This document shows positions 13,371-29,624 of a DNA stretch of 64,000 bases, piece by piece. The notes under the pieces are model-generated. The model made no database searches and was not told the origin of the DNA. It saw only the letters and a list, made by a program, of their open reading frames with translations. A program made the position numbers and the translations under genes. Source of the stretch: Clostridiales bacterium (lineage in GTDB: Bacteria; Bacillota; Clostridia; Christensenellales; Borkfalkiaceae); assembly GCA_003523255.1 (NCBI GenBank), contig DPGH01000012.1, forward strand, positions 118,759 through 182,758, in the 5' to 3' direction. Position 1 is the stretch's first letter. Every line of letters starts with the position of its first letter.

Positions 13371-13385
13371 TAAACGACGATTAAA

Positions 13386-13428
13386 AAGCGAACTTTGTTT
13401 TTACGACAGAGTTCGTTTTTTTTTTGCT
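13386..13428 (+). terminator. Rho-independent terminator closing the polysaccharide operon
   Basis: Stem CGAACTTTG/CAGAGTTCG (one mismatch), a 9-nt loop, followed by T9 (13416-13424). Confidence 0.7.
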
Positions 13429-13640: not shown

Positions 13641-13775
13641 AAAGTAAATTTTACTCTTAGTTCGGGGTTGAAACGGTAAAAAAGTTATTGTATAATTAGA
13701 TAAACAAAGAATAAACGAAAATTATAAAAAAAACGAGCCATAATACGTATAAACGGTAAAAATAAAATTAAAAAA

Positions 13776-13959: not shown

Positions 13960-14082
13960 ATGAAAAAACTATACGAACAACCGACAATCAAAATGACAGT
14001 TTTGCCTACGTGCGACGTGTTAAGCATATCGCCGACTTTCGACGATAAGAACTATTTGAAAGAAGAATGGTTCGATTTATAA
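13960..14082 (+). CDS. Unannotated small ORF (40 aa): MKKLYEQPTIKMTVLPTCDVLSISPTFDDKNYLKEEWFDL
   Basis: AAGGAG 10 nt upstream of the ATG. Ends 10 nt before the RBS of the 1006-aa secreted protein gene. Below the 60-aa cutoff of the ORF track. No homology assignable from memory. Confidence 0.4.
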   Translation: MKKLYEQPTIKMTVLPTCDVLSISPTFDDKNYLKEEWFDL

Positions 14083-14092
14083 GGGGGAAATT

Positions 14093-17000
14093 ATGAAAAC
14101 GAAAAGAATCACATTATTGCTTGCTATAATAGCGTTTTGCGCTTTTAGCCTTGCGCTGTCCTTTTCCGTCGTAAACAAAACCCGTGCGGAAGAGGTTACC
14201 GCCGCCGAGGGTATCGTGATGACGGAAGGCGCTTCCGTCCGGTACGACGCGGAAGAACCCGGCATAAGATTTACGACCGAAATGACTAAATCTTATTATG
14301 ACGAACTCGTTGCCGCCGCTACCGACGGCAAGGTCGATTTTTATACGATAATCACCGTAAACGGCAATACCGAAAAGTCCGCCCGCATAAACCACGAGCG
14401 CACGCTTCGGTTTGAAAACGGCGTTGCGACTTTTCAAGCCGCGCAACTTATAAAGCTTGTAAACCGCGAACTTACCGCCGAAGAGCGTAAAAAAGCCGCG
14501 GCGTTTGAGTTTACTGCGGACTTTTACGCGGAATACATAAATGCGAAAGGTGAAACCGTTACCGTTAAAGCGGACAAAAGCGGCGTTACGCGTTCTATGA
14601 GAGGCGTAGCAAGCTACGCGCTTTTAAACGGCAACGTAACGGACGAAAATAAAATAAACATGCTTAAAGGCTACCTCGGCACCGTTACCGAAAATACCGA
14701 AGTAAGGTATGCAGACCTTTCGGATAAATCCAAAGTAGACCTCGGTTTAGAGAGCGGTGCGGTATATTTAACCGCACAAAAAGCGGGCGATATAACGGAC
14801 GGCGTTGTAGACCTCTCCGCAGAAAATATTAAAACGGGTGTCGAAACGACCGTTTCCGTTTTCGACGCGGACAACAACGTTACCCGTTACAAATATATCT
14901 TTGCAGATAAAATAATCACCAAGGCAGAAGATTTGGCGGTTTTTGCGATAGCAGATCATAAAACGTACAAAAACGAAGGTTATTATATACTCGGTAATGA
15001 TATCGACGCGACGGGTTATACTCACAAACACGGTGCTTGGCTCGGTTGGGGAGAGAATCAACCCGGTTTTGAGGGCACCTTTGACGGCAGGGGGTATACG
15101 ATAAATAATCTTTCTATCGGTGCTTTCGGCTTATTCGGTTATATAAGACCGCATACCGTGCTTAAAAACTTTGCGCTGGTAAATATGAAACCCGTTCTTT
15201 CCCGCAGCGACGGCGTTGACGCCTTCGGCGGGCTTGCGTACATAGCGTATTCCACGCCGACGGCTTATCCCACGCTTGAAAACATTTATTTATCGTCGAG
15301 TTTTTTCCTTGACGACTACGTAATAACTTCGGGCAAGACTCAAGGTAAAACCCAAACGATAATAAGCTCTATGGTGTTTAGCGCGACTTGGGGTTACGAG
15401 CAAATTAAAAACTGTATATTCGAGTATACGGGAGACGTTGCAACCGGCGGGCGCGGCATATATTCCGGACTTCTCCAAGGCGGAAAGGACAAAATTACCG
15501 TTTTAGATTCGTTCGTAATAGGTAAAAACCCGGTCGTTCAAACCAAAAGCAACGATGTATACGACAGTGCGAACAATATAACCGAGGGTAGCGGTGCTAC
15601 CGTTTATCCGCTTACCCGTTACAGCGACTATGCCGGATTAACGGCGAACGTAACCGATTTCAGTTCGTTTGATACCGCTTACTGGGATATATCTAACGGC
15701 GCGCCTGTATTTAAGGGAGCGCAAAAGTATCTGAGTAAGCCCTACGTAACTATCGGCGGCAATACGGCGGCGAATTACGAACTCGGTATAAACGACGTAA
15801 AAACTCTCGGCGTAACTGCGTTTATCGGCGAGTTGAACGACGTAACTTATACCGTTACTTCGGGTAGCGAATACGTTACCGTAAGCGACGGAAATATAAC
15901 GGGCGTTGCGGTGGGCGATGCCGTAATTACCGCGCAATATACCCTCGGCGGCGAAGTTATGACCTCGTCGATAAACGTAACGGTCGTTCCCACCATAATA
16001 GAGGTAACGACTCCGTTAGAATTCAGTATGGCAGACGGAACGTTAACCGCGGCGGATAAAATCGCGATATTCGGAAACTCGGATATAGAGATACTTTCGG
16101 TAAACTGTTTTGACGCTTCGGTTGCGCTCTCTATTGCAGACGGCGTAATAACGGGCTTCCCCGAGTATACAGCAAAAAGCACGCCTAAAACGTATGCGGT
16201 TTCTTTCACGACCGCAGAGGCAATATATAAAGTAAACGTTACGCCGTATACGAAGATAATAAGGACTGCTGCGGATTTATCGGTGTTTAATTTCCCCGGT
16301 CATGACGGATACAAAAACGAAGGGTACTACGTACTCGGCAACAATATAGACGCGTCCGGGTATCTTCATAAACATACCACGGCGGCGGGTAATCCGACGT
16401 ATATAGACTGGAACACCAAAGGTACAACCGGGTTTGAGGGAACGATTGACGGCAGGGGTTACACGATAAGCAATATCACAATCGGTACAGGCGGATTGTT
16501 AGGGTATATAAGACCGAAGACGGTGCTTAAAAACTTTGCGATAACCGGCATAACGTTCCAAAGGACGCACGGAAACGGCGACCCGCTTACGGCGGCACTT
16601 GCTAAAATAATGTATTCTACGAAAGACAGTTATCCTATACTTGAAAATCTGTATATACAGGCAAACGCATTTATCGGCGGGGCGGATACGAACAGCAACC
16701 TTGTGGTAAACTGCACAACGGGTTATGAGAAAATCGTAAACTGCATATTCGAGTATTCGGGTGTAAAAGATACCACCGCAGGGCACGGAACGTATGCATC
16801 GCAAATAGCGGACAGAAACGTTACCGGGTTTAAGATTGAAAATTCTTACGTTATTTCGTTAAACCCCGTAGCGTGCGGCGGCAAAACCAACCCCGTATAC
16901 GACAGCGCGAACAAAATCGAGGCGACGACAGCGGAGTATACGGCGTTGTATCCGGATGGCTCAACGTTTCCTAAAAAGGATTTCTATACGGTTGAACTTA

Positions 17001-17113: not shown

Positions 17114-17130
17114 AGTAAAAACTTTAAGCG

Positions 17131-17162
17131 GCGGTAAGCGGGCATAGCCACCCGCTTACCGC
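17131..17162 (+). other. Perfect 12-bp stem-loop (GCGGTAAGCGGG / CCCGCTTACCGC, 8-nt loop) between the secreted protein gene and the SBP gene
   Basis: Read directly. No downstream U-run, so more likely a partial terminator, RNA-processing or stability element giving differential expression within the operon. Confidence 0.45.
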
Positions 17163-17198
17163 ACCTTTAAGATAAAAAACAAATTCGGAGGAATTATA

Positions 17199-18938
17199 AT
17201 GAAAAAATTTTTTGCACTACTTTTATGTTTATTTACAGCGTTCTCCGTTACGGCATGCGGCTCGGCTGAAGAAGAGGATAACTCTACGACTACCGTTATC
17301 ACCGTACACAATTACAACGGCGGCGTAGGCAACAAATGGCTTGAAGACGCAGCCGCACGCTTTACCGCGCTTAAAACCGCCGACAGCTACGAAGAGGGTA
17401 AAACCGGCGTAAAAATCAATATCGTCGGCAACCAGCAGTCGGAACTCAGCACCATGGCGACTTCCGGTTACAACATGTTCTTTTTCGAGCAGCATTACGA
17501 TATAAGAAATCTTTCTCAAGGCGAAAAACTTCTTGATGTATCCGACGTGCTTACCGAAAAAAGCAACGACGAGCGCGACGGGGTAAAAGTTTCTATCGAA
17601 GATAAAATTCCCGAAGAGTACAGAAGCACTCTTAAAGGCGCGGACGGCAAATATTACGGCTTGCCGCATTACGCCTGGTATCCCGGTCTTACTTACGACA
17701 GAGAATTATTCGACAAATATAATTTCTATTTTGCCGCACCCGATGAAGCGAATAAACAAAAAATCGAAACGCAATTCGGCGGCGAGCATTACTTTATTGC
17801 CGACAAAAACGGCAAAAAGAGTTGCGGTTCCGACGGCAAATACGGCACTGCGGACGACGGACTTCCCTCGTCGGTAGAAGAATTTTTGGTTCTTTGCGCG
17901 TATATGAAAACCACGTACGGCGTTCAACCCGTTACTATGGCGGGTATGTATAAGTATTATTCTAACTATCTGGTTGAGGGGCTTTGGGCTTCGCTTTCCG
18001 GCGGGGAACAAATGAAAGTAAACTACACCTTTACCGGCGACGTAGACGTTGTAACCGGTTATACAAACGAAAACCTTTTTGAGGGTATAGACTACGTTAA
18101 AAAACCGATAGTGGAAACAAAGTCCGTTACCGAGGCGACCGGCTATCTCGCGTACGATTCCGTTTATCGTTACTATGCGGCTTCGCTCGTTAAAATACTC
18201 GAAAAAGAAAAGTTCTTCTCAAGCGACGCGACTATGGGCTCCGTTTCTCACACCACCGCGCAGGGCGACTTTATATTCAGCGGCAAGGCGCAAATGCCCA
18301 AAACCGCAATGCTTATAGAAGGTACCTACTGGTATAACGAAACCGAAGAAAAGGCTAACAACTTAACCGACTACTATTCCGACCCGAGAAATACCGAAAG
18401 GGACGTAAGGTGGATGAATTTACCGACCATTATAAGCGGCTCTGCCAAGCCCGTAGCGGACGACGCCCCCGCGAGAAAGAACACCGCGGTAGAAACTGGC
18501 GGTGCGTACCTTGTGGTAAATGCGAATATAGAAGGCAAAACCGGACTTATAAACGCTATTAAAGACTTTATCAAGTTCCTATACACCGACAGCGAACTCG
18601 AAGCGTTTACCGTTTCTACCGGTATACCCAAGGCTATGCTCGATTACGAAGTAAGCGACGCTAAAATCGCGGACCTTCCCGAGTTCAAAAAATCGGTTAT
18701 TAACTTTGCAAAAACGAGCGATGTAGTTTACGGCGCGGCGGATAACGAAACTTTCCTTAAAAACGGCAACGACGTGTTTAAGGTAAGGGTAAACGCACCC
18801 GTATTCGTACCCAAATACAAAAACGTATCTTACATGAGTTATTTCCAGGCGTATGAAAACGGCGCAACCGCGCAAGACGTATTCGAAGCCACGAGAATAA
18901 GCGCAGAGGGCTGGAAGGCGTATTATGTCGGCAATTAA
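17199..18938 (+). CDS. Extracellular solute-binding lipoprotein of a carbohydrate ABC transporter (LplA-like, family-1 SBP, unusually long at 579 aa)
   Basis: Lipoprotein signal with lipobox FSVTAC|G, followed by a Ser/Glu-rich linker. Size and context with two LplB/LplC-like permeases immediately downstream. Confidence 0.7.
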   Translation: MKKFFALLLCLFTAFSVTACGSAEEEDNSTTTVITVHNYNGGVGNKWLEDAAARFTALKTADSYEEGKTGVKINIVGNQQSELSTMATSGYNMFFFEQHYDIRNLSQGEKLLDVSDVLTEKSNDERDGVKVSIEDKIPEEYRSTLKGADGKYYGLPHYAWYPGLTYDRELFDKYNFYFAAPDEANKQKIETQFGGEHYFIADKNGKKSCGSDGKYGTADDGLPSSVEEFLVLCAYMKTTYGVQPVTMAGMYKYYSNYLVEGLWASLSGGEQMKVNYTFTGDVDVVTGYTNENLFEGIDYVKKPIVETKSVTEATGYLAYDSVYRYYAASLVKILEKEKFFSSDATMGSVSHTTAQGDFIFSGKAQMPKTAMLIEGTYWYNETEEKANNLTDYYSDPRNTERDVRWMNLPTIISGSAKPVADDAPARKNTAVETGGAYLVVNANIEGKTGLINAIKDFIKFLYTDSELEAFTVSTGIPKAMLDYEVSDAKIADLPEFKKSVINFAKTSDVVYGAADNETFLKNGNDVFKVRVNAPVFVPKYKNVSYMSYFQAYENGATAQDVFEATRISAEGWKAYYVGN

Positions 18939-19866
18939 AAACGAGGCAAAAACTATTTTTAACAGCAAAAGGCAACTGCACAGATTTTTATTCTGGTTAA
19001 GCATAGTCGTTTTGCCGCTTATACAGTTTTGCGTGTTTTACGTTTACGTAAACTTTAACATGATTGTAATGTCCTTTCAGCACTTCGAGGCTAAAACGGA
19101 CGCGTTAGGTTACGTAGTAAATTTTGCGGGATTAGAAAACTTTAAAGCGGCTTGGCAGTTCCTCGGCGCAAATCTTTACATGATTAAAAATTCGCTGATA
19201 TACTTCGTGTTCTGCACGTTGCTGACTATGGCGTTCTCGCTATGCTTTTCGTTCTATATCTATAAACAGTTTTTCGCTTCTAAGTTCTTTAAGGTGATGC
19301 TGTTTATGCCGCAAATCGTTTCAAGCGTGGTATTCGCGTTGCTGTTTAAGTATATCGTTACCGACGTTTACATAGGTATCGTCGGCGGCGAAAACGTTAT
19401 AGGGCTTTTGGATAACCCCGCAACGCGTTTCGGTACGGTGCTGTTTTACAACGTATGGATGGGCTTCGGCGTAAACATATTGCTGTTCAGCGGCGCGATG
19501 AGCGGTATAAACGAATCTATAGTAGAATCCGCCGAGATAGACGGCGCTACGCATTTAAGAGAATTCGTAAGTATAACCATACCTATGATATTCCCGACGA
19601 TTAAGTCGCTTTTGGTTCTCGGCATAGTCGGCGTGTTTACCAACCAGATGAATTTATTTACCCTTTTCGACAATCAGGCGGGGGACGTGTCTACGTTAGG
19701 TTACAGCATTTACCTGCAATCGGTACGAGCGGACATAATAAACAAAGACCCCAACAATCTCGACTTTTCGCAGTTGTCGGCTCTCGGTATAATCTTAACG
19801 CTTATACTTGTACCGATAACCACGGGCATTAAAAAACTGCTCGATAAGTACGGGGCAAGCGTGTAG
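18925..19866 (+). CDS. Carbohydrate ABC transporter permease (LplB-like, MalF/UgpA class)
   Basis: 6 TM segments. EAA-loop-like region ESAEIDGATHLREFVSITIPMIFP. 14-nt overlap with the SBP gene. Confidence 0.8.
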   Translation: MSAIKNEAKTIFNSKRQLHRFLFWLSIVVLPLIQFCVFYVYVNFNMIVMSFQHFEAKTDALGYVVNFAGLENFKAAWQFLGANLYMIKNSLIYFVFCTLLTMAFSLCFSFYIYKQFFASKFFKVMLFMPQIVSSVVFALLFKYIVTDVYIGIVGGENVIGLLDNPATRFGTVLFYNVWMGFGVNILLFSGAMSGINESIVESAEIDGATHLREFVSITIPMIFPTIKSLLVLGIVGVFTNQMNLFTLFDNQAGDVSTLGYSIYLQSVRADIINKDPNNLDFSQLSALGIILTLILVPITTGIKKLLDKYGASV

Positions 19867-19878
19867 GAGGAGCAAAAA

Positions 19879-20826
19879 ATGGATGATAAAAAAACTGCGT
19901 CCCGCGGGCGCGCTTTAAGTAACTTTTTTATAATTTTGCTCGGAACGATTATTTTGCTTTACGCGATATCGGTTATTCTTCCGCTTGTGTGGGGGCTTAT
20001 AACTTCGCTTAAATCGAATATGGACTTTCAGTACCAAAACAATAAACTTTGGTTTCCGAATGCAGAGTTCAGCGCGGCTGAAATAAAACTCGCCAACTAC
20101 TCGCTTATACTTAATAACTTTAACTTTTCCGAAACGGTAATGTTTTATTCGGGCAGCACTCTCGTAACGCATAAAGCGCAGGCAACGCTACCTTTACTTA
20201 TACTGAACACGTTTTTATACGCGGGGGTGGGTTGCCTTATACTCGCGATGGTACCCGCGGTTTGCGCATACGCCTGCACGAAATACAAGTTTAAGTTTAA
20301 CAAAGTAATTTTTATGCTTAACCTTGTCGTGATGACGTTGCCTATCGTAGGTTCTTACGCGACATCGCTTACGCTTTTGAGAAACTTGGGGTTATACGAT
20401 AACTTCTACGGTAACTATATACAAAAGTTTTCTTTTACCGGTATGTATTTCCTCGTGTTCGGCGCCTTTTACGAAACCTTTCCCGACGCGTATTTAGAGG
20501 CGGCGGAGATAGACGGCGCTTCGCATTACCGCGTGCTTTTCAATATAGTCATTCCGCTTTCGGCAAAAATGCTGGGCACGGTTGCGCTTATTCAGTTCGT
20601 TTCGCTCTGGAACGACTATCAAACGCCGCTTATGTATTTGCCCACGCATCCTACGCTTGCTTACGGCGTGTACTATATGGCTTTTAAAAACACTAACGGC
20701 GTGCTTTCCAAAACGCCGATAAAAATCGCGAGTTGTATGATACTCGCAGTGCCGATTTTAATTTTGTTCATCGTGTTTAAAGACAAACTCATGGGCAACA
20801 TTTCTGTCGGCGGAATTAAAGAATAA
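19879..20826 (+). CDS. Carbohydrate ABC transporter permease (LplC-like, MalG/UgpE class)
   Basis: EAA loop EAAEIDGASHYRVLFNIVIPL. 6 TM segments. Confidence 0.8.
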   Translation: MDDKKTASRGRALSNFFIILLGTIILLYAISVILPLVWGLITSLKSNMDFQYQNNKLWFPNAEFSAAEIKLANYSLILNNFNFSETVMFYSGSTLVTHKAQATLPLLILNTFLYAGVGCLILAMVPAVCAYACTKYKFKFNKVIFMLNLVVMTLPIVGSYATSLTLLRNLGLYDNFYGNYIQKFSFTGMYFLVFGAFYETFPDAYLEAAEIDGASHYRVLFNIVIPLSAKMLGTVALIQFVSLWNDYQTPLMYLPTHPTLAYGVYYMAFKNTNGVLSKTPIKIASCMILAVPILILFIVFKDKLMGNISVGGIKE

Positions 20827-20841
20827 ACCAAAAGGAGATGA

Positions 20842-23800
20842 ATGATGAAGGCAATAAAAAACAAATTGTTTGTTCTGGCGCTTTTGTGCGCGGCGGTATG
20901 TTTGCTTTCCGCGGGGTTTTTAACGATTAAACCCGTTTCCGCTTACGTCAGCGGCGAGTTTACCGAAACCGCGGTTAAAGACGAATACGTTGTGGGCGAT
21001 ACGTTTTCACTTAAAAACGCTAAAATCGAGTACGACTCCAAAGAGTACTCCGTAACGAGCGCGTCTATGCGTTATCCCGACGGCAGAGTTTTTGAAAAAT
21101 CCGAGTACGTTTTCGAGGACGCGGGTAAATACGTTTTAACCGCTTACGCAAAAACCGACGCGAACGAAACCGTGCGTACCGAAAAAGGAATAAGCGTTTT
21201 GTCGAGCGCGTACAGCGTTTCTGGCGAGGGTTCGCAAATCGAATATAAAGACGTTTTACCGATGAGCGCGGCGGAATATGCGGGATTGTATATAAAAGTC
21301 GCCGACGGAGAAACGTTTACCTATCACGAGGCAATCGATTTAACCGCGAACGGGGGAGTAAACACTTTTCTTTCGCTGTATCACTATAACTTTAATACTC
21401 GTCTCGAAGGGGCAGACGGTTCTTTAAGACAGGTAAACAATATAGTAATTCGCTTAACCGACTGCTACGACGAAAAGAATTATATCGAATACACCATGTA
21501 CTGGGGTCCTTCGATGATGTATTACAGGGCGGGCGCTTCTAACCAAAAGAGCACCGGCTTATATCAGAACTCCGCTACGGGCAATTACGTAACGATATAC
21601 GTTGACGGCGTTGCTTACCGCGTGTTCTATTCGGACTGGGGCACTCACTCCAACATGCGCGGGCACAATGCCGAAAACAGACAAGTTCCGTACGAATTTT
21701 CGTTCGACTACAACACCAAACGCTGCTATATCAAAGACTGCTATGCAAACTGGCTTGTAACCGACCTCGACAATACGGACATTCAGGCGGAAACGTTTAA
21801 CGGTTTTACCACGGGTGAAGTTTATCTTTCCATAAGGGGCGTAGATTATCAGCAGGCTCCGTACTTTGAAATAAACGTCTCCGAATTAAACGGCAAAACA
21901 GGCAAATCTCTCGATATGTCTTGCATCCGGGACAACGTTCCGCCGGAACTCGTTATAGACGTGCCGGAAGTCGACCCGATAAAAATCGCGAAGGGTGAAA
22001 AGTTCAAAACTTTCGACGCGACTGGTTACGATTTTAATCTGCTCGGCGACGTGTCCGTAAAAGTTTTTTACAATTACGGCACCAAATATCAGGTAAACGT
22101 ACCGACGGAAAACGGGTATTTTACGCCCGATAAAATCGGCGAATACACTTTTGTGTACACCGCAACGGACAAATACGGCAATAAAACCGAAAAGACGGTA
22201 AAAGTTTATTCCGTCGCGACCGAAAACGGCAAAACCATAGATTTTACCGTCGACAGGCTTACCGAACTTAAAACCGGTAAAGAGTGCGTTCTCCCCGAAT
22301 ATTCGGTACGCGGCATAAACGGCGGCGTTTCGGTAGAAACGTTTTACTCTTTCGGCGGAAAAGAAACAAAAATAATCGGCAACGCGTTTACTCCTACGGC
22401 TTTCGGCGAGTACGAGATAATCTACAGATATTTCGACGCGGTGTCTTATTACGAATATTCTTATAAAGTAAACAGCGTTTCTTCTGACGCGATAAGCCGT
22501 AAAACCGACGCGTTTTTACCCGAATACTTTATTAAAAACGCCGAATATTCTCTCGATAAACTTTTGGTAAACTCTTTCGATACGGGTAAGGTTTTAGACC
22601 ACGAAACGGAAATTTACGTAAGCGAGGACGGCGGAGAGTACAAAAAAATCTCTTACCAAAAATATAAGGTAAACGCCGAAAACAGTTTGAAGTTTAAGTA
22701 CGTTTACAAAGACTGGCAGTACGAAACGGGTGAAAAGAAAGTCGTAAACGTAGGTTTCGGCAGTTCGCTCGACTTAACCAAGTACTTTGTCGGCGGAGAA
22801 GCATCCGCAAACTTTAACAGCGCGACGCTTATCGCAAACGAAGAGGGTACTACTAAAATCGATTTTATAAATCCGATTTTAACGACGAATTTCAATATAG
22901 ACTTTTCCGTCCCGCAGGACGGCGCGGCTTACGAAGAACTTACGATAAGACTCATAAATTACTACAATTATCGCGAAGTGCTTGATATAAACTACAAAAA
23001 CATAAACGGCAAGGGCTATTTGGGTATTAACGACGGCGAGTATAAAACGCTTTTGAATACCGACTTTGCGGGAGTGCAGAGAACGCTTGCATATAATCAG
23101 AAATCCAACGAGTTCTCGACTTCCGGCGTAAATGTCGTTAGTCCGGTTAAGTTATCGTCGGAAAAGGTTTTCGTTTCGTTTATCGTTAAAAACGCAAGCG
23201 GCGTAGCCGGCGTAAAACTCAACGCGATAAACAATCAGGTGTTCTCTACGGTTAAAAACGACTTTATTTTGCCCGAATTTTCAGTAGGCGGCACCAACGG
23301 CATCTTCTCCAAAGGAGATTTGGTAACGATAGAGCCTATCGCGGTTTGCGACATGCTTTCGCCCGTTCTTGACGAAAACACGCTTTTAACGATAAAAGAC
23401 CCGAGCGGCAACGCGGTTACGGACGTTAACGGCGTAAAACTTACCGACGTTCCCGCGCAACTTAACTCTTACACGTTTGCGGCAAACGAGTTCGGAACTT
23501 ATATCTACACTTATACGGTAGAGGACGAAAGCGGTAACGTTGCGTATAGCAAAGACCTTGAAATAAAGGTTGCAGATACCGTTAAACCGCAAATTACGAT
23601 AAGCGGCATAAGTAACGGAGATAAATTAACCGCAAAATACGGCACCGTATACAAACTCCCCGATTGTACCGTTAGCGATAACAACACGGCGGTTTCGGAT
23701 ATTGTGGTAATAAAGGCGGTATTTACCCCCTCTAACGAGGTTATTACCGCGGGTGATACCGTGTATCTCGACAGGTGCGGTGTTTATACGATCGTATATT

Positions 23801-23868
23801 ACTGTTACGACGACGGCGGAAATTACGCTTCCGTTTCTTATACCTTACAAGTAGACAGAGGTGAATAA
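20842..23868 (+). CDS. Large secreted surface protein (1008 aa): N-terminal beta-sandwich (ConA-like?) region followed by several Ig-like (DUF5011-type) domains
   Basis: Signal peptide MMKAIKNKLFVLALLCAAVCLLSAG. Repeated Ig-like segments of the pattern P.I..G.....YG..Y.LP.......D.....V......G.YTIVY...D..GN (e.g. PQITISGISNGDKLTAKYGTVYKLPDCTVSDNNT...GVYTIVYYCYDDGGNYASVSYTLQV). No catalytic motif recognised. Confidence 0.6.
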   Translation: MMKAIKNKLFVLALLCAAVCLLSAGFLTIKPVSAYVSGEFTETAVKDEYVVGDTFSLKNAKIEYDSKEYSVTSASMRYPDGRVFEKSEYVFEDAGKYVLTAYAKTDANETVRTEKGISVLSSAYSVSGEGSQIEYKDVLPMSAAEYAGLYIKVADGETFTYHEAIDLTANGGVNTFLSLYHYNFNTRLEGADGSLRQVNNIVIRLTDCYDEKNYIEYTMYWGPSMMYYRAGASNQKSTGLYQNSATGNYVTIYVDGVAYRVFYSDWGTHSNMRGHNAENRQVPYEFSFDYNTKRCYIKDCYANWLVTDLDNTDIQAETFNGFTTGEVYLSIRGVDYQQAPYFEINVSELNGKTGKSLDMSCIRDNVPPELVIDVPEVDPIKIAKGEKFKTFDATGYDFNLLGDVSVKVFYNYGTKYQVNVPTENGYFTPDKIGEYTFVYTATDKYGNKTEKTVKVYSVATENGKTIDFTVDRLTELKTGKECVLPEYSVRGINGGVSVETFYSFGGKETKIIGNAFTPTAFGEYEIIYRYFDAVSYYEYSYKVNSVSSDAISRKTDAFLPEYFIKNAEYSLDKLLVNSFDTGKVLDHETEIYVSEDGGEYKKISYQKYKVNAENSLKFKYVYKDWQYETGEKKVVNVGFGSSLDLTKYFVGGEASANFNSATLIANEEGTTKIDFINPILTTNFNIDFSVPQDGAAYEELTIRLINYYNYREVLDINYKNINGKGYLGINDGEYKTLLNTDFAGVQRTLAYNQKSNEFSTSGVNVVSPVKLSSEKVFVSFIVKNASGVAGVKLNAINNQVFSTVKNDFILPEFSVGGTNGIFSKGDLVTIEPIAVCDMLSPVLDENTLLTIKDPSGNAVTDVNGVKLTDVPAQLNSYTFAANEFGTYIYTYTVEDESGNVAYSKDLEIKVADTVKPQITISGISNGDKLTAKYGTVYKLPDCTVSDNNTAVSDIVVIKAVFTPSNEVITAGDTVYLDRCGVYTIVYYCYDDGGNYASVSYTLQVDRGE

Positions 23869-25885
23869 CATGAAAAAAAGAATAATTGCGATTGCGCTGC
23901 TTATAGTTTGCTTGTTCGTTACGGGCTGTAATAAAGACGGCGACCTTCCTCACACGCCCGAAAGGCGTAACGACAAGGTTACTTACGAAGGCTCGCACAA
24001 CATGAGTTACGAATTTCTCGAAGACGATTTTATCAGCGACGGGCACAGCGATTACGTTTTGGTTTACTCCGCAAACGCTAAAAGTTACGACCTGACGGCT
24101 GTAAAAGAGTTCAATTCTATTTTTGAAAAAGCCACCGGTTTTACTCTTAACACGACGACGGACAGCGGGCTTTCTCATACGGCGGGCGGCAAATATATTT
24201 CTATCGGAAAAACCGCTTTGTTTGAAAGTTCGGGTTTAACCGTTAATTTCGACGAACTCGGCAACGAAGGCGTAAGAATACTTACCAAAGACAAAACGGT
24301 GTATATACTCGGCGGTAAAACTAACGGCGTTATATTCGGCGTTTACGATTTTATGAGCATAGCGTTTAATTACGAAACGTTTTATGAAGATTGCATTCAG
24401 ATAAACGAAGGCGTTAATAACCTTAAACTTATAAATTTCAACGTTACCGATATTCCGGATATCGCTTTGCGTGCGCGTAACTATTCCGTATATTCGAGAA
24501 AAAGCGAAGATTACGATATGAATATGTTCAAAACGCGTATGAGAATGACGAGCAACAGAGAACTTTTGCCGATACACAAAACGTATAGCCAGAGTTCGCC
24601 TTCAAGCATCTCGGACTCACATAACTCGACGTTCTTTCTCCCGAGAGAAGTTTATTATGCCGACCATCAGAAATGGTTTAGCGACAACGGCGACCAACTT
24701 TGCTACACCGCGCACGGCGACGCCGAAGAGTTCGAGGCGATGGCTTCAGAATGCGCTAAAAAGGTTGAATACAGCCTTACCTTGTACACTCCGGACGAGC
24801 ACCCCGAGTACGACGTGGTTGCGCTTAATATAATGGATAACCGCGCTATTTGCTCCTGCAAGGCGTGCGCGGCGTCGTTCAAAACGTACGATAACTGCAA
24901 CTCGGCGGCGGCTATAAAACTTATCAACAGAATGGCAGAACTTGTTGACGAGTGGATGGAAAAGCCCGAAAACGCGGCTTACAAAAGAGAAATGCACTAT
25001 ATATTCTTCGCATATCTCGATTTAGAACCGTGTCCCGCGCGCTATAACGAAGAAACCAAAAAGTACGAACCTATCGACGAAACGGTAAAAATGCGCGATA
25101 ACGTGGGCGTGTACCTTGCGCTTCTCGACCAACTCGATTATCAGGCGAGCATATACGACGCGGTAAACGACGACGGCAGAAAGATTATAGACGCATGGGG
25201 CGATATGACCGACTACGTATGGTACTGGCTGTACGAGATAAATTTCAGAAACGCCAACTATTTTTACGATTCGTTCAACTTTTTCGGAGAAGCGTATTCC
25301 TATATTTGCAATAAAGGCGCCACGCTTTTATACACGCAGGGTAAGTCTTACGAAATCGCTTGCGACACGGTATACGACAAGTTAAAACTTTACCTTAACT
25401 CCAAACTTTCGTGGGACAGTTCGCTCGACGTATCGGTTCTTACCGACAACTGGTTTAACGCGATGTTTAAAGAAGCCGCTCCCGCGATGAAACGGATATT
25501 CCTCGATACGCGTGCGTACAATGCTAAAATGATTCGCGATAACGGGTTTATCCATAAGCGTACTAATTATAACGAAGTAAACAACGCTAAATACTGGTCG
25601 CTTAACTATCTTAAACAGCAAATGGCTGCGTATGACGAGGCAAAACAAATTATCGCTACCGTATATGCGGAAGATTCCGTAACCAAAACGCGTATTTCGA
25701 GATATATCGAAGCGGAATGGTTTTCGCCGGCGTTTATAACTGCCCAGCTTTATGCCGTCAACCTTTCTACGGCGGAAAAGAGCGAACTCTACGCAAGAGT
25801 TTCCGCCGCGGTAGAAGATTTAGGCATCACCCGTACGGGAGAGTCCTCGGGAACGAGCGTTATGGACGTATTGAATAACATGTAA
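23861..25885 (+). CDS. Lipoprotein, DUF4838/GH20b-N-terminal-like putative glycoside hydrolase (674 aa)
   Basis: Lipobox LFVTGC|N. N-terminal region (YVLVYSANAKSYDLTAVKEFNSIFEKATGF...VYILGGKTNGVIFGVYDF) resembles the beta-hexosaminidase/GH67-type N-terminal domain seen in DUF4838 proteins. The family name is given from memory and is not verified. Confidence 0.4.
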   Translation: MNNMKKRIIAIALLIVCLFVTGCNKDGDLPHTPERRNDKVTYEGSHNMSYEFLEDDFISDGHSDYVLVYSANAKSYDLTAVKEFNSIFEKATGFTLNTTTDSGLSHTAGGKYISIGKTALFESSGLTVNFDELGNEGVRILTKDKTVYILGGKTNGVIFGVYDFMSIAFNYETFYEDCIQINEGVNNLKLINFNVTDIPDIALRARNYSVYSRKSEDYDMNMFKTRMRMTSNRELLPIHKTYSQSSPSSISDSHNSTFFLPREVYYADHQKWFSDNGDQLCYTAHGDAEEFEAMASECAKKVEYSLTLYTPDEHPEYDVVALNIMDNRAICSCKACAASFKTYDNCNSAAAIKLINRMAELVDEWMEKPENAAYKREMHYIFFAYLDLEPCPARYNEETKKYEPIDETVKMRDNVGVYLALLDQLDYQASIYDAVNDDGRKIIDAWGDMTDYVWYWLYEINFRNANYFYDSFNFFGEAYSYICNKGATLLYTQGKSYEIACDTVYDKLKLYLNSKLSWDSSLDVSVLTDNWFNAMFKEAAPAMKRIFLDTRAYNAKMIRDNGFIHKRTNYNEVNNAKYWSLNYLKQQMAAYDEAKQIIATVYAEDSVTKTRISRYIEAEWFSPAFITAQLYAVNLSTAEKSELYARVSAAVEDLGITRTGESSGTSVMDVLNNM

Positions 25886-25891
25886 AAAAAC

Positions 25892-25912
25892 GGGGTCGTA
25901 AAGGGCGACCCC
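25892..25912 (+). other. Short GC hairpin (GGGGTCG...CGACCCC) immediately before the RBS of the 25925 gene, no U-run
   Basis: Read directly. Possible intra-operon attenuator or stabiliser. Confidence 0.35.
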
Positions 25913-25924
25913 TAAGGAGGAAGT

Positions 25925-28900
25925 ATGAAGAAAAAATTAACAGTATTACTACTATCGTTATGCGCGTTGCTTTGCGTTTTCGGCGCGGCGGCGTGTAACG
26001 ACAATCCCGATACTCCGCCGGAACCGAGCGTTACCGAGAGTTTGACTCTTAACAGCGCGCGGTGCGAATTGCTCGTCGGCGACGAATTTAAACTCGTTGC
26101 AACGTATACGGGCAACGCGCAGGGCGAAGTAAGTTTCGTTTCCGATAACGCCGCCGTCGTGGAAGTGGCGAATGACGGAACGATAACCGCCGTAGCGGAG
26201 GGTGAAGCCAACGTTACCGCAAGCAAAGGCGAAAAATCCGCAAAATGCGCGGTTACCGTTTCTTTCGGTAGCGAAACGCCTTTGTTAAAGTTTGACGAAA
26301 GCGAATTGTCTTTAACGAGAAAAGATTCGCTCGATTTAAATGTTAAAGTACATTTCAACAACAAAACGTTTACTCCTACCGACGTCGAATATTCTGTAGA
26401 AGACGAAGAAATCGGTAAAGTCGAAAACGGAAAGTTTGTTCCCGAAAAACTCGGTTTTACTAAAATAACCGCAACGGGTAAGTGGGGCGGCAAAACTCTT
26501 ACGAGCGAAAGCATGACAGTAACCGTTACGCGTGATCTCAGACTTTATTTTAACGACGGCGGCGAGGATAAAGTAGAACTTTATTCTAAGGCGTCTTATA
26601 GGGGTCTGTCTTTCGTAACCGAGCAAGATTTTATCGTGCGCGCATTCGAGGACGGCGAAGCGCTTACCGGCAGGGGCGCAAGCGTTATCGAGGGAGATGA
26701 CGTTATCTCTTACGAAAACGGCAAAATTAAAGCCTTAAAAAAGGGAACTGCCAAAATAGAAATTTACTGCGTGGATAACGGCGGAGAAAGGTTTACTAAA
26801 ACGGTAGATGTGCTTGTAAAAGTTCCCGTGGCGGAAATTACCGACCCCGTGGAATTAAGCCTTAAAAAAGGAGTTTTCTCGTCCGAAGCGTTAAACGCTA
26901 TGTTTGAAAGCGGCTCGGTAGCCGTTACCGACATATCGTGCGATAACGACGATGTTACCGCTTCGGTTTCCGGCGGCAGAGTTTCTATCGGTGGCGACTT
27001 TGCCTTGGCAACACCCGTTTATTTCACCGTTTATACAGAAGAATACGGTTGCAAAGTTCCGCTCGTTCTTTATTCCGATATTATAACCGAGGCTTCAGAC
27101 TTCTCGTCTTTCGTAATAGCAAGACAAGATGATTATAAAAACGAAGGATATTATATACTCGGTAACGATATAGACGCATCGGGTTACTTGTATAAACATA
27201 CTACTGCCTCGGGCGGTAAACCGTGGATAAGCATGGGCGGCGGAAAGAACGGCTTTAACGGTACGTTTGACGGCAGAGGACACGTCGTAAACAATATGAC
27301 GATAGGTACTTTCGGAATATTCGGATATATAATGCCTAAAGCGACTATTAAAAACGTGGCGTTTACAAACGTTAAGTATCAAGACACTTACGGTAATAAA
27401 GAGATACTCGTAGCTACTCTTGCGACCTGTATCGACTCGTCAGAAAACGTTTATCCTACGTTAGAAAACTTGTATATACAGGCAAGTTCGTTTATCGGCG
27501 GAGAAAATACTATTTGTAACCTCGTAACCAACTCGACCGTCGGATACGAAAAAGTAAAAAATTGTATTTTTGAATTCAGCGGAGTTGATAATATTGCGGG
27601 GCACGGGGTATATTCAAGCCTTGTGTTTAGCAGCAATACCAAGTTAAAAGTAGAAAATTCTTACGTAATATCTACTTCTCCCGTTGCTTCCGGTAAAGGT
27701 TCCAACATAATTGCGGACAGCGAAAACAAACTTGCCGCAACGAAAGAAAAATATCAGGGCTTATATCCGAGTAAAACGGACGATAAATTTATTGCTTATC
27801 CGCTTACCCGTTATAACGACTATGCGGAATTTAAACAAAACGTTTCTAATCTGGCTGCTTTCGATACCGCATACTGGGATATATCTAACGGCGCGCCGAT
27901 ATTCAAAGGCGTGCAAAAAGTATTTAAGCCGTATATAACCGTAGACGGTAATCCAGCAAGCGAATTAGAGTTGATATTAAACGAAGAAAAAGAACTCGGC
28001 GTTACGTCGTTTATAGGTCAAATAGCAAACGTTACTTTTGCCGTTACTTCCGGTAGCGAAAACGTTACTATAGAAAACGGCGTGTTAAAGGGTATTAAAA
28101 CGGGTAAAGCAGTTGTTTCTGCCGTGTTCGCGCTCGGCGGTGAAAACGTTACCCTTACGTTAAACGTAAACGTGGTAAACGAAATTATAACCGTCAACAC
28201 TCCGATAGAATTCAGTATGATGGACGGCACGCTTACTTCTGCAGATAAAACCGCCATATTCGGTAGCGACGCGGTAGAAATTATCGATGTAAAGGCTACC
28301 GATATAACGGCTAACCTCTCGCTTGTAAACGGCAAAATAACGGGCTTCCCCGAATACACCGCGGGTGCCGCGCCTAAAACGTACGAGGTGTTGTTTACTA
28401 CGGCAGACGCTATTTATAAAGTAAACATTACGCCTTATACGAAAATAATAAAAACCGTTTCCGATTTATCGGTATTCAATTTCCAAGGTCATACGGGCTA
28501 CAAGAACGAAGGATATTACGTGTTAGACAACAACATAAACGCGTCCGGGTATCTGCATAAACATACCACGGCATCGGATAATCCGACGTATATAGACTGG
28601 AATACTAACGGCACAACCGGGTTTGAGGGAACGATTGACGGCAGAGGATATACGATAAGCAATATCACGATCGGCACCGGCGGTTTGTTAGGGTATATAA
28701 GACCTAAAACAACGATTAAAAATCTTGCCATAACCGGTATAACGTTCCAAAGAACGTACGGTAGTGATGACCCGCTTACAGCGGCGCTTGTCAAAATAAT
28801 GTATTCGACGAAAGACAGTTATCCTGTACTTGAGAATTTATATATAAAGGCAAACGCGTTTATCGGCGGGGCAGATACAAACAGTAACCTTGTGGTAAAC

Positions 28901-29299
28901 TGCACCTCCGGCTATGAAAAAATAGTGAACTGCATATTCGAGTATTCGGGGGCGAAAGATACCACCGCCGGACACGGCACGTACTCCTCGCAAATAGCGG
29001 GTAGAAACAACACAGGGTTTAAGGTAGAAAATTCTTACGTAATCTCGTTAAACACCGTAGCGTGCGGCGGCAAAACCAACCCCGTTTACGACAGCGCAAA
29101 CAAAATCGAGGCGACGACAGCGGAGTACACGGCGTTGTATCCGGATGGCTCAACGTATCCTAAAAAAGATTTCTATACCGTAGAGCTTACTCGTTACGAC
29201 GACTATGCGGAACTTACCGAAAACGTAACCGATTTCAGTTCGTTCAGCGACGCTTACTGGGATATTACCGCGGGCTATCCCGTGTGGAAAAACGCTTAA
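25925..29299 (+). CDS. Large secreted/lipoprotein multi-domain protein (1124 aa): two Big_2-like domains and two GLUG-like modules; paralog of 14093..17113
   Basis: Signal with lipobox FGAAAC|N. Big_2-like segments (LTLNSARCELLVGDEFKLVATYTGN...VTASKGEKSAKCAVTV). Modules KNEGYYILGNDIDASGYLYKHTT...FNGTFDGRGHVVNNMTIGTFGIFGYI and the C-terminal ~300 aa >90% identical to the C-terminus of the 14093 protein. AGGAGG RBS. Confidence 0.7.
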   Translation: MKKKLTVLLLSLCALLCVFGAAACNDNPDTPPEPSVTESLTLNSARCELLVGDEFKLVATYTGNAQGEVSFVSDNAAVVEVANDGTITAVAEGEANVTASKGEKSAKCAVTVSFGSETPLLKFDESELSLTRKDSLDLNVKVHFNNKTFTPTDVEYSVEDEEIGKVENGKFVPEKLGFTKITATGKWGGKTLTSESMTVTVTRDLRLYFNDGGEDKVELYSKASYRGLSFVTEQDFIVRAFEDGEALTGRGASVIEGDDVISYENGKIKALKKGTAKIEIYCVDNGGERFTKTVDVLVKVPVAEITDPVELSLKKGVFSSEALNAMFESGSVAVTDISCDNDDVTASVSGGRVSIGGDFALATPVYFTVYTEEYGCKVPLVLYSDIITEASDFSSFVIARQDDYKNEGYYILGNDIDASGYLYKHTTASGGKPWISMGGGKNGFNGTFDGRGHVVNNMTIGTFGIFGYIMPKATIKNVAFTNVKYQDTYGNKEILVATLATCIDSSENVYPTLENLYIQASSFIGGENTICNLVTNSTVGYEKVKNCIFEFSGVDNIAGHGVYSSLVFSSNTKLKVENSYVISTSPVASGKGSNIIADSENKLAATKEKYQGLYPSKTDDKFIAYPLTRYNDYAEFKQNVSNLAAFDTAYWDISNGAPIFKGVQKVFKPYITVDGNPASELELILNEEKELGVTSFIGQIANVTFAVTSGSENVTIENGVLKGIKTGKAVVSAVFALGGENVTLTLNVNVVNEIITVNTPIEFSMMDGTLTSADKTAIFGSDAVEIIDVKATDITANLSLVNGKITGFPEYTAGAAPKTYEVLFTTADAIYKVNITPYTKIIKTVSDLSVFNFQGHTGYKNEGYYVLDNNINASGYLHKHTTASDNPTYIDWNTNGTTGFEGTIDGRGYTISNITIGTGGLLGYIRPKTTIKNLAITGITFQRTYGSDDPLTAALVKIMYSTKDSYPVLENLYIKANAFIGGADTNSNLVVNCTSGYEKIVNCIFEYSGAKDTTAGHGTYSSQIAGRNNTGFKVENSYVISLNTVACGGKTNPVYDSANKIEATTAEYTALYPDGSTYPKKDFYTVELTRYDDYAELTENVTDFSSFSDAYWDITAGYPVWKNA

Positions 29300-29354
29300 C
29301 CATTCCGTGCGGCGCATAAAGCGTCCGCATTGTGAAGATCATCAATGCTCTTTT

Positions 29355-29400
29355 AATAACGACGGACGCCGATTAAAAGTCGGTGCCCGTCGTTATTTTA
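29355..29400 (+). terminator. Rho-independent terminator ending the 14093-29299 operon
   Basis: Stem AATAACGACGG / CCGTCGTTATT (11 bp) with a structured loop, followed by TTTT. Confidence 0.6.
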
Positions 29401-29548: not shown

Positions 29549-29624
29549 TGGTGGAGATAACGAGATTCGAACTCGTGGCCTTTTGACTGCCAGTCAAACG
29601 CGCTACCAACTGCGCCATACCCCC
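29549..29624 (-). tRNA. tRNA-Ala (anticodon GGC), 76 nt with encoded CCA
   Basis: Manual fold of the minus strand: acceptor GGGGGTA/TATCTCC with the G3:U70 alanine identity pair; D-arm GCGC-AGTTGGTA-GCGC; anticodon stem TTTGA/TCAAA with loop CTGGCAG (GGC); T-arm ACGAG-TTCGAAT-CTCGT; discriminator A, CCA. Confidence 0.85.

Follow-up and report, generated by a model that had tools for sequence, protein, structure and literature searches.

Organization of the operon

The DNA that we analyzed is a stretch of 64,000 nt (hereafter, the window) from a genome named "Clostridiales bacterium" at NCBI. ORF calling on the window revealed eight co-directional, closely spaced ORFs between positions 13960 and 29299 of the plus strand, with terminators on either side (Table 1); the source genes carry the locus tags DEV87_05875 to DEV87_05905. 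A previous, sequence-only reading of this DNA had all ORF positions right, but counted seven genes. The gaps between genes range from -14 to +85 nt, and a terminator pattern scan found no convincing plus-strand terminator within the operon. Close spacing and terminators at the flanks only are consistent with the genes being carried on one transcript. The genes can be considered real, since each of the large proteins has many homologs and the gene order is conserved.

The noncoding leader region (13371-13959; 589 nt) is AT-rich, as previously described, but shorter than the 720 nt given before, which included the small ORF. It contains short repeats (AAACGGTAxxAAA three times and TATCAGATAT twice); no Rfam family matches it and its RNA structure is not significant. 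At the 3' end, the terminator previously noted beside the tRNA-Ala gene corresponds to a terminator-like hairpin followed by a T-run. No regulator gene is present between positions 12282 and 33355, where the neighbors of the operon encode a GDSL lipase, tRNA-Ala, YchF, ArgS, and a HAD hydrolase.

Table 1. Features of the operon and its boundaries (positions in the window)
Feature	Position	Strand	Description	Evidence
Intrinsic terminator	13383..13421	+	Ends the GDSL-lipase gene that precedes the operon; 5' boundary	17-pair hairpin and T-run
Promoter candidate	13668..13696	+	Best sigma-70-like candidate, TTGAAA-17-TATAAT	Consensus match only (11/12)
sORF	13960..14082	+	Micro-protein, 40 aa, MKKLYEQPTIKMTVLPTCDVLSISPTFDDKNYLKEEWFDL; RiPP/lasso-leader-like; companion of P1	AGGAG 10 nt upstream of ATG
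P1	14093..17113	+	Secreted, 1006 aa: signal peptide, ~160-aa N-domain, module A, Big_2-like linker, module B
SBP	17199..18938	+	Lipoprotein solute-binding protein, 579 aa, lipobox VTA↓C	Ortholog profile matches sugar SBPs; divergent member of family 1 (oligosaccharide-binding)
ABC permease 1	18925..19866	+	UgpA/MalF-like	PF00528, E=1.2e-11; NCBIfam UgpA/MalF partial matches
ABC permease 2	19879..20826	+	UgpE/MalG-like	PF00528, E=4.5e-10; NCBIfam UgpE/MalG partial matches
Ig-rich surface protein	20842..23868	+	1008 aa; N-terminal helix (signal or anchor)	Ig-like and jelly-roll domains
DUF4838 protein	23861..25885	+	Lipoprotein, 674 aa, lipobox VTG↓C; GH67N/GH20b-like N-domain and DUF4838 (PF16126) TIM-barrel	Pfam
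P7	25925..29299	+	Lipoprotein, 1124 aa, lipobox AAA↓C; Big_2 and HL_N-beta Ig-like domains and two beta-helix modules	Pfam Big_2, HL_N-beta
Terminator-like hairpin	29361..29400	+	ACGACGGACGCCGA...TCGGTGCCCGTCGT then TATTTT; 3' boundary	Read by eye; not listed by the pattern scan
tRNA-Ala(GGC)	29549..29624	-

A putative oligosaccharide importer

The SBP sequence alone matches no Pfam model. A profile built from 28 SBP orthologs, though, matches sugar-binding SBPs of the PDB, including 9h0n (E=3.5e-24), the chitin-oligosaccharide NagB2, and a XOS-binding protein. We found no match to an ATPase (ABC_tran) among the operon proteins or 30 other ORFs of the window, a set that does not extend to roughly a dozen ORFs at 42.1-63.7 kb. 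CUT1-type sugar importers of Firmicutes usually share an ATPase of the MsmX/MsmK type, and the ATPase gene is usually absent beside the permeases. The importer had been described as ATPase-less, which holds for the scanned ORFs, but is ordinary for the CUT1 class rather than an oddity. The operon resembles CUT1/LplABC-type importers in its ~580-aa lipoprotein SBP, in its UgpA/MalF- and UgpE/MalG-like permeases, and in having no ATPase gene; it differs from them in an SBP too divergent for any Pfam model.

A DUF4838 lipoprotein

DUF4838 (PF16126) provides the catalytic domain in both GH163 and GH185 (PMC10570127), so that the degrading enzyme of the operon is identifiable at the family level. 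The match is strong (E=2.7e-24; 86.4 bits versus a cut-off of 26.6), with residues 188-546 corresponding to positions 15-323 of the 325 of the model. It upholds the GH20b/DUF4838 identity suggested before, and DUF4838 is not a family of unknown function. The only characterized DUF4838 enzymes are the GH163 BT1035, an endo-beta-GlcNAcase acting on complex N-glycans, and the GH185 Sp_0475, an exo 6-sulfo-beta-GlcNAcase with active-site residues Q174, H227, D309, and Y436, and R633 for sulfate (PMC10570127). Like these enzymes, the operon protein has the whole PF16126 domain and a GH20b/GH67N-like N-terminal domain. Unlike them, it is a lipoprotein and belongs to a cell of the Gram-positive type, Sp_0475 being cytoplasmic; it also does not carry the F5/8 domain of BT1035 and has a conserved cluster of four Cys that is absent from the account of GH163/GH185 enzymes in PMC10570127.

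The invariant positions in its orthologs include H254, D326, N356, Y385, and Y458 together with the Cys cluster; R204 is conserved too. Compared by spacing, H254/D326/Y458 are arranged similarly to, and may correspond to, H227/D309/Y436 of Sp_0475. The sequence evidence points to the DUF4838 lipoprotein being probably a glycoside hydrolase of the GH163/GH185 group. It could nonetheless be inactive or of quite different specificity, given that the family is very diverse.

Giant surface proteins

P1 and P7 are paralogs, as had been recognized, with 63% identity over 751 aligned positions. Both contain two copies of a repeated module (P1, residues 269-548 for module A and 717-1006 for module B; P7, residues 381-668 and 836-1124), which is ~280 aa long and not ~150 aa as stated before. 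Its predicted fold is a right-handed parallel beta-helix (pLDDT 90). The nearest known counterpart is the GLUG-type helix of IgA1 proteases, which is non-catalytic; the closest PDB structures (3n6z, 7uvk, and 7jgj) represent the N-terminal region of these proteases, in line with the GLUG/beta-helix assignment of the earlier reading. At the sequence level, P1 has no match to Pfam GLUG (PF07581) or Peptidase_M26_N (PF05342) at E<=10, and P7 has none at E<=0.01, PF05342 being faint or weak in distant homologs only. Unlike IgA1 proteases, P1 and P7 possess no M26 metalloprotease domain: HExxH is absent from both and from the Ig-rich protein, and no peptidase Pfam family matches. The module also differs from the IgA1-protease helix in a distinct, conserved cap at its C-terminus (RY...F...W...G.P.FK) and in its tandem arrangement with Big_2 domains. 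The ~160-aa N-terminal domain of P1 (N-domain), with the signature "GASVR...GIRF...TRSMRGVA", is a new domain. As for P7-like genes, 29 of 35 orthologs have a lipobox by regular expression and most of the others a lipobox-like Cys, while GLUG signatures are present in 19.

The Ig-rich protein comprises approximately seven Ig-like domains along with two jelly-roll domains of larger size (concanavalin/legume-lectin-like; residues ~125-350 and ~640-800), with no enzyme fold found. As noted before, the three giant proteins showed no catalytic motif, and they showed no catalytic fold either.

A conserved micro-protein upstream of P1

The sORF is the least expected and most unusual element of the operon. 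Its length is counted from the ATG, the automatic ORF list beginning at GTG 13951. It had been noticed as a small leader-like ORF; the gene is present, but was under-read, for it belongs to a conserved, lasso-leader-like family tied to N-domain proteins. This unannotated family comprises at least 1,687 clusters among 1.84e9 representatives, is matched by no Pfam or NCBIfam model, and is conserved at positions Y5, P8, D19, S24, and W37. In all 10 N-domain proteins checked, an sORF lies -16 to +15 nt upstream, whereas 600 kb of control loci with GLUG-type proteins yielded neither sORFs nor N-domains. The sORF and P1 pair travels together, being at the 5' end of the operon here and at the 3' end in most relatives.

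Lasso peptide precursors are characterized by a YxxPxL leader motif, a Thr (or Ile/Val) at -2, and a ring-forming Asp/Glu at core positions 7-9 (PMC10368454). The window sORF has the leader motif as Y-x-x-P-x-[LI] (Y5, P8, and I10), with Y and P at least 90% conserved across 18 operon-linked members; the motif lies 1-2 residues further from the presumed cleavage site than it does in canonical lasso precursors. Numbering the invariant Ser as +1, the sORF superfamily resembles lasso precursors (PMC10368454) in having Thr at -2 (126 of 163 members), Asp/Glu enriched at +7/+8/+9 (0.46/0.41/0.30 versus a baseline of ~0.2), a median "core" of 19 aa, and commonly a bulky Trp. The window peptide departs from them: its -2 residue is Ser, and its Asp residues are confined to +5/+6, with no acid at +7 to +9. 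Lasso systems keep their maturation genes (RRE/PqqD, leader protease, and cyclase) nearby, while the invariant genomic partner of the sORF is instead a giant secreted N-domain protein. Genes for PqqD, kinase, protease, or cyclase were found neither in the window nor in any operon locus, and the same is true of homologs of the L066 PqqD, HprK-like, and S24-like proteins; no lasso cyclase was seen at any locus. A distant family member is present as three tandem precursors next to genes for PqqD and HPr-kinase-like proteins. In its sequence features, the sORF product resembles a precursor that gives rise to a modified peptide of the lasso type.

Conservation in gut Clostridia

The comparative check showed that the gene order is conserved. 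The core SBP, permease, permease, Ig/lectin protein, DUF4838 protein, and P7-like protein (a Big_2/beta-helix lipoprotein) recurs in the genomes of ~40 species among the uncultured Clostridia of the gut, including Christensenella, Catabacter, Ca. Scatosoma, and Pumilibacteraceae. It is intact in 24 of the ~29 fully covered loci and permuted in two more; its sixth gene corresponds to the N-terminal part of P7. In natural fusions (P0005, 1243 aa; L007, 1534 aa), a single polypeptide carries the N-domain, the beta-helix, and DUF4838, so that the non-catalytic parts are physically tied to the enzyme. In relatives, the neighboring genes encode GH95, GH78, GH2, GH4, GH20C, GH127, GH63-like, NagB, and PfkB proteins, as well as GFO/IDH/MocA oxidoreductases and, at several loci, AraC-type regulators. 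The glycosidases are heterogeneous and point to no single substrate.

A model for glycan capture, cleavage, and import

We suggest, with a probability of about 0.6, that this operon serves glycan utilization of the Gram-positive type in an uncultured member of the gut Clostridia. The capture, degradation, and import of a glycan had been proposed before, and this fits the conserved synteny, which combines a sugar importer with a GH-family enzyme and with surface proteins of the lectin and beta-helix types. We infer activities and interactions from the observed domain identities, folds, lipoboxes, and synteny. The SBP, the DUF4838 enzyme, and P7 would be tethered as lipoproteins on the outer face of the membrane, the Ig/lectin protein would be anchored through its N-terminal helix, and P1 would be secreted. 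Capture and display of a complex glycan may fall to the Ig protein, through its lectin-like jelly rolls, and to P1 and P7, through their GLUG-type beta-helices. The DUF4838 enzyme, a relative of the GH163/GH185 retaining beta-N-acetylhexosaminidase-type hydrolases, would then cut this glycan. The large SBP would catch the freed oligosaccharide for import via the two permeases, powered by a shared ATPase of the MsmX kind with its gene elsewhere in the genome. The sORF would be translated along with P1 and functionally coupled to its new N-domain. From the enzyme family, our best guess for the substrate is a HexNAc-containing host or dietary glycan.

Several other explanations can be conceived for the large proteins. 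P1 and P7 might be catalytic through their beta-helix modules, which would then form a new polysaccharide lyase or hydrolase family; in that case the operon would encode several depolymerases and the DUF4838 enzyme would be only an exo-acting finisher. We deem this unlikely. We give slightly less credit still to the large proteins being adhesins or surface architecture (host or particle attachment, or an S-layer-like coat), their linkage to the transporter being incidental or localizing uptake. Across ~40 species, the genes for the Ig protein, DUF4838, and the P7-like protein stay linked, in strictly conserved order, to those for the SBP and permeases; this is hard to explain for pure adhesins, as are the fusions of N-domain and beta-helix with DUF4838, and lectin-like domains suit glycan capture equally well. 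The genomic position brings to mind yet another function, the processing and recycling of a capsule or exopolysaccharide made by the upstream locus (window positions 1-13370), which the sequence-only reading offered as its alternative: the operon lies directly downstream of this Wzx/Wzy-type capsule locus with FnlABC-like UDP-HexNAc enzymes, and a HexNAc-rich capsule would suit a HexNAc-active hydrolase family. Nevertheless, between the two loci lie a terminator and a spacer of 589 nt, and the capsule locus has a low-GC part (30-33%; the operon has 44-47%, the same as the remainder of the window) that looks independently acquired. Moreover, polysaccharide-synthesis families are absent from the 25 commonest neighbor Pfams of the ~40 related loci, whose gene maps show other neighbors. 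Adjacency to such genes is thus not conserved, which largely refutes the capsule alternative and makes it very improbable.

Regarding the sORF, we tentatively entertain that it constitutes with P1 a separate two-gene unit riding in the operon. The peptide could be a true RiPP precursor, matured by enzymes of other loci, whose mature form the N-domain binds, displays, or responds to, or a nascent-peptide regulator of P1 translation. The joint movement of the pair, its constant spacing, the control loci devoid of both elements, the lasso-like rules of the superfamily, and the tandem precursors beside PqqD all favor such a unit. Against it stand the lack of maturation genes in the window and operon loci, the atypical -2 and acidic positions of the window peptide, and the lack of a signal sequence on a peptide whose partner domain is extracellular; for attenuation, no RNA structure points to it. 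More doubtful is a bolder proposal, that sORF and N-domain form an undescribed two-part system, the peptide having been recruited as obligate partner of the N-domain, alongside a new type of glycan-harvesting surface complex (Ig/lectin protein, DUF4838, and beta-helix lipoprotein) confined to Christensenellales-like gut bacteria. If so, the giant glycan-capture proteins would bear at their tip a domain paired with a peptide derived from a lasso/RiPP precursor. The peptide could be a trans-matured ligand or plug held by the invariant arginines of the N-domain, could instead aid folding, secretion, or anchoring, or could be a nascent-peptide sensor tying P1 synthesis to a signal.

Comparison with known systems

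As a putative glycan utilization operon, the locus can be compared with the polysaccharide utilization loci of both Bacteroidota and Gram-positive bacteria. To the SusE/F-type SGBPs of Bacteroidota PULs it is similar by analogy only, with membrane-tethered Ig-like and lectin/CBM-like chains beside a transporter and an enzyme; there is no sequence relation, the cell envelope differs, and none of the eight operon proteins matches the Pfam families of TonB-dependent receptors or SusD, so that no SusC/SusD pair is present. Closer are the gpPULs of Roseburia/Eubacterium rectale (Sheridan et al. 2016, PMC5320581), which likewise combine a GH-family enzyme, an SBP-dependent ABC importer, and surface proteins in co-directional genes. 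Of the gpPUL components, we found a degrading enzyme (PF16126, by family) and a carbohydrate transporter (SBP and two BPD_transp_1 proteins), but neither a regulator nor an ATPase gene in or next to the operon, which therefore agrees with the formal gpPUL definition only in part; several related loci do have AraC-type regulators beside them, as in gpPULs. Unlike gpPULs, the operon includes a single recognizable enzyme, and half of its coding capacity is devoted to three ~1000-aa non-catalytic proteins of unannotated families, in addition to the micro-protein. The hosts differ as well, being uncultured Christensenellales-like Clostridia here and Lachnospiraceae for gpPULs. The earlier claim of a system "new as a defined system" was then too strong, because the operon is a variant of the Gram-positive PUL theme (PMC5320581): an uncharacterized yet recognizable Gram-positive polysaccharide utilization cassette.

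Organization of the operon and its surroundings

The sequence-only reading placed the ORFs at coordinates that we matched exactly, but counted seven genes where the operon has eight ORFs (see table). Intergenic gaps range from -14 to +85 nt, and the G+C content of the operon (44-47%) is similar to that of the remainder of the window. Outside the operon and the capsule locus, the scanned ORFs are housekeeping genes (ychF, argS, rho, typA, clpC-like). An N6/N4 DNA methylase gene lies directly 3' of rho and overlaps it (36063-36986), with no restriction partner evident among the scanned neighboring genes.

Features of the operon and its flanks (window positions)
Feature	Position	Strand	Remarks
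Capsule locus genes	1-13370		UDP-Glc dehydrogenase, Wzy-like polymerase, GT1, GT2, Wzx flippase, amine oxidase-like protein, two UDP-GlcNAc 2-epimerases, FnlA/CapE-like and CapF-like enzymes, GDSL acylhydrolase
Terminator of upstream GDSL gene, strong	13383-13421	+	hairpin scan
Promoter-like site	13668-13696	+	11/12 consensus match; consensus scan
sORF, 40 aa	13960-14082	+	ATG start; AGGAG 10 nt 5' of it
P1, 1006 aa	14093-17113	+	ORF map; type-I signal peptide read from translated sequence
SBP lipoprotein, 579 aa	17199-18938	+	ORF map; lipobox present
Two permeases	18925-19866 and 19879-20826	+	BPD_transp_1 in both; resemble UgpA/MalF and UgpE/MalG
Ig/lectin protein, 1008 aa	20842-23868	+	ORF map
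DUF4838 lipoprotein, 674 aa	23861-25885	+	lipobox; PF16126 match
P7, 1124 aa	25925-29299	+	lipobox; Big_2 and HL_N-beta Ig-like domains at start
Hairpin and T-run 3' of P7	about 29361-29400	+	read from sequence
tRNA-Ala(GGC)	29549-29624	-	other strand from operon

The leader carries two sets of repeats, which an unlinked regulator might use as operators: AAACGGTA(A/G)xAAA at 13551, 13671 and 13751 (region 13551-13815), the middle copy overlapping the -35 of the best promoter candidate, and TATCAGATAT, present twice 30 nt apart (13776 and 13806). A riboswitch or attenuator was ruled out, as Rfam returned no match and the RNA fold z-score was -0.45; no RNA structure or Rfam element at the small ORF (sORF) or the leader points to attenuation. 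A defense-system or phage origin of the operon was likewise rejected: PADLOC gave no matches, and PHROG matches were almost confined to the Big_2 Ig region, the one weak match elsewhere being to a family of unknown function at the start of the beta-helix module. Upstream, the window begins with a locus for capsule or polysaccharide synthesis, whose first ~8 kb have a G+C content of 30-33%, against 43-47% elsewhere in the window. This compositional difference suggests that they are a horizontally exchanged, serotype-specific part.

A conserved cassette in gut Clostridia

An alignment of the Ig/lectin protein, used to scan a single genome of each species, yielded 51 loci, about 40 of them with full-length relatives, all from uncultured gut Clostridia. 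The hosts are Christensenella, Catabacter, Ca. Scatosoma, Pumilibacteraceae and "Clostridia bacterium" MAGs, sampled from human, sheep, yak, deer and chicken. Of about 29 loci covered in full, 24 keep the order SBP-permease-permease-Ig/lectin-DUF4838-P7-like, and two more have it in permuted form, so that the gene order on which the sequence-only reading had proposed a check is indeed conserved at its core. Some cassettes have an extra DUF4838 fusion protein of 1450-1530 aa on their 5' side, and the cassette sometimes occurs in two copies per genome, as one would expect of PULs whose specificity has diversified. Several genomes have two Ig-protein loci (L032/L038 in JAZSFP01, L009/L045 in CAZNWP01, L028/L031 in JAZSJN01); L032 and L038 each hold a complete six-gene cassette, and the other pairs are interrupted by contig ends. 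Contig CAZNWP010000014, which carries the cassette (loci L003/L009), belongs to an uncultured Christensenella MAG.

The flanks of the cassettes are carbohydrate-related. Most frequent are GFO/IDH/MocA oxidoreductases, with 12 of the 91 flanking ORFs (loci L007-L048); they may act as GH109-like NAD-dependent glycosidases or, in the downstream pathway, as sugar oxidoreductases; AraC regulators number 7-9, and genes for GH94-like, GH78, GH2, GH63-like, GH4, GH20C, GH127, GH95, PfkB and NagB proteins also occur.

The probable enzyme, the binding protein and the surface proteins

The DUF4838 protein scores 86 bits against PF16126, the match spanning the entire model, and also shows a weak GH67N-type N-domain. 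PF16126 is the catalytic TIM-barrel of GH163 and GH185, and only two members of this glycosidase family are characterized: BT1035 (GH163), an endo-beta-GlcNAcase acting on complex N-glycans, and Sp_0475 (GH185), an exo 6-sulfo-beta-GlcNAcase with a substrate-assisted mechanism (PMC10570127). The probable degrading enzyme, which the sequence-only reading called GH20b/DUF4838-like, therefore falls in a known family. No solved relative was found by sequence or profile, beyond weak N-domain similarity to GH67/GH84. Across 35 orthologs, D326, N356, Y385, H254, Y458 and a four-Cys cluster are conserved or nearly so. The cysteines (C281, C331, C333 and C336; QLCYTA ... DxxxxCxCxxC) are near-invariant and adjoin the invariant D326; they may form a structural metal site, a feature that the GH185 paper does not mention (PMC10570127).

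The solute-binding protein (SBP) alone found no match in Pfam, NCBIfam or PDB sequence searches; when 28 orthologs were combined into a profile, it matched family-1 oligosaccharide-binding proteins of solved structure, namely 9h0n (E=3.5e-24), the chitin-oligosaccharide binder NagB2 and a xylo-oligosaccharide binder. Lipoboxes are found in the SBP, the DUF4838 protein and P7. For the Ig/lectin protein there are at least 179 clusters, and all those with a source name are labeled "hypothetical".

The giant surface proteins P1 and P7 are 63% identical across 751 aligned positions. Their repeat, described before as ~150 aa long, is in fact a unit of about 280 aa present in two copies in each protein. 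The last ~800 nt of the two genes (16300-17113 and 28480-29299) are 83-93% identical at the DNA level, versus 54-75% for the preceding 600 nt; because the 3' ends are so much more alike, the sequences suggest that the C-terminal beta-helix module was recently duplicated or subjected to gene conversion. Related cassettes encode P7-like proteins that are nearly all lipoproteins, with one to three GLUG signatures in 19 of 35. Relatives of P1 are few (29 clusters, one of them, P0005, fused to DUF4838). Several show faint Peptidase_M26_N similarity, and identity as an M26 protease was ruled out by the absence of HExxH. Neither P1 nor its N-domain matched anything in Pfam, NCBIfam or PDB sequence searches, and a literature search for "GLUG + beta-helix" found nothing relevant.

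A micro-protein family with a branch coupled to the N-domain

In P1-type proteins a signal peptide precedes the N-domain, which is ~160 aa long and carries the motifs GASVR...GIRF...TRSMRxVA. An ORF of 36-53 aa lies at -16 to +15 nt 5' of every P1-type protein examined (10 of 10 specifically checked). Pairs of sORF and N-domain number more than 20. In relatives the pair usually sits at the 3' end of the cassette; in the window it is at the 5' end. Since the C-terminal parts of the sORF partners vary (beta-helices, DUF4838, others), the constant partner is the N-domain. P0005 (L001 7277-11008, 1243 aa) and a 1534-aa protein (L007 1594-6198) combine signal peptide, N-domain, GLUG-type beta-helix and DUF4838 in a single chain, each preceded by an sORF. 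No stretch of the N-domain alignment was conserved enough to seed a metagenome scan. The module alignment returned only distant GLUG-type proteins, which served as a negative control: neither an sORF nor an N-domain occurs in their 80 loci (600 kb).

The peptides share Y5, P8, D19, S24 and W37; no Pfam or NCBIfam model covers them, PDB sequence searches with the sORF were equally empty, and their motif had no literature match. Searching 1.84 billion representatives with a profile yielded 1,687 clusters (E<=1e-3), the best 150 all 30-75 aa long, with the consensus MKKxYExPxLEVIxFExEDVITTS and then an acidic or glycine-rich tail, often with Trp. Taking the invariant Ser as +1, 126 of 163 family members have Thr at -2, with Asp/Glu peaks at +4/+5 and +7 to +9 and a median "core" of 19 aa. 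YxxPxL, Thr(-2) and a ring acid at 7-9 are hallmarks of lasso-peptide precursors (PMC10368454). The superfamily has all of these, with acids at +7 to +9, whereas the window peptide departs from the rules, with Ser at -2 and Asp at +5/+6; in 18 operon-linked peptides the Asp/Glu excess at +7 to +9 (13/18 by hand count) is indistinguishable from composition (roughly ~58% expected at ~25% Asp/Glu).

Distant family members have mixed contexts (one RiPP-like cluster, one orphan beside UxaC/SDR/DUF4832, one contig too short to judge), and strict pairing thus holds for the operon-linked branch and not for the whole superfamily. In the RiPP-like cluster (L066 1317-3383, on a 3.4-kb metagenome contig), an AraC regulator and three tandem precursors of 49, 45 and 42 aa, whose tails end in GWGEWP-type motifs, are accompanied by a PqqD protein, a P-loop protein resembling HPr kinase (weak ScmC) and an S24/S26-like peptidase of 152 aa (SGDSMEP). 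The cluster may stand for a RiPP class that is either phosphorylated and lasso-like or new. Maturation genes of this kind are absent from the window and from every cassette locus.

Discussion

The best-supported reading of the operon, to which we give a probability of about 0.6, is a Gram-positive-type glycan utilization cassette. Surface-tethered lectin-like and beta-helix proteins would catch a complex glycan, the DUF4838-family hydrolase would cut it, and the divergent SBP and two permeases would take up the products, powered by a shared ATPase encoded elsewhere. The operon does lack an ATPase gene for its importer, as the sequence-only reading had remarked, yet this is no peculiarity, its absence from such operons being ordinary. 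Judging from the two characterized DUF4838 members, HexNAc-containing glycans are tentatively suggested as substrate, although the glycosidases neighboring the cassette are heterogeneous.

The fusion of N-domain, beta-helix and DUF4838 in relatives ties the non-catalytic proteins to an enzyme. We consider it unlikely that the beta-helices of P1 and P7 are themselves catalytic, and quite improbable that the proteins act purely as adhesins or surface architecture. Capsule processing, proposed earlier from the adjacent capsule locus, is very improbable: polysaccharide-synthesis genes are not among the carbohydrate-related flanking genes of related cassettes, so this adjacency is not conserved. 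That sORF and P1 form an autonomous peptide-protein unit is a tentative idea, and one compatible with the glycan-cassette reading.

Christensenellales-like Clostridia are heritable, health-associated and mostly uncultured gut bacteria, whose mode of feeding is largely obscure. Being present in about 40 species-level genomes and built around the DUF4838 glycosidase family, the cassette is a concrete, testable candidate for their harvest of complex glycans. The sORF peptides form a large micro-protein family that lacks annotation and shows features of RiPP precursors; one of its branches is coupled to surface proteins and not to maturation enzymes. Should the sORF-N-domain pairing prove functional, RiPP-like peptides would have a new role.

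Contrary to the earlier claim, the operon does not amount to a categorically new system but is an uncharacterized variant on the theme of Gram-positive polysaccharide utilization loci (gpPULs), with an enzyme family already known; it departs from the formal gpPUL definition only in having no regulator in the locus. Three things are new: the six-gene cassette, which is conserved in Christensenellales-like gut bacteria and specific to them; three sizeable families or domains without annotation (the N-domain, the beta-helix module and the Ig/lectin protein); and a micro-protein resembling RiPP precursors that is strictly coupled to a new domain at the N-terminus of secreted surface proteins.
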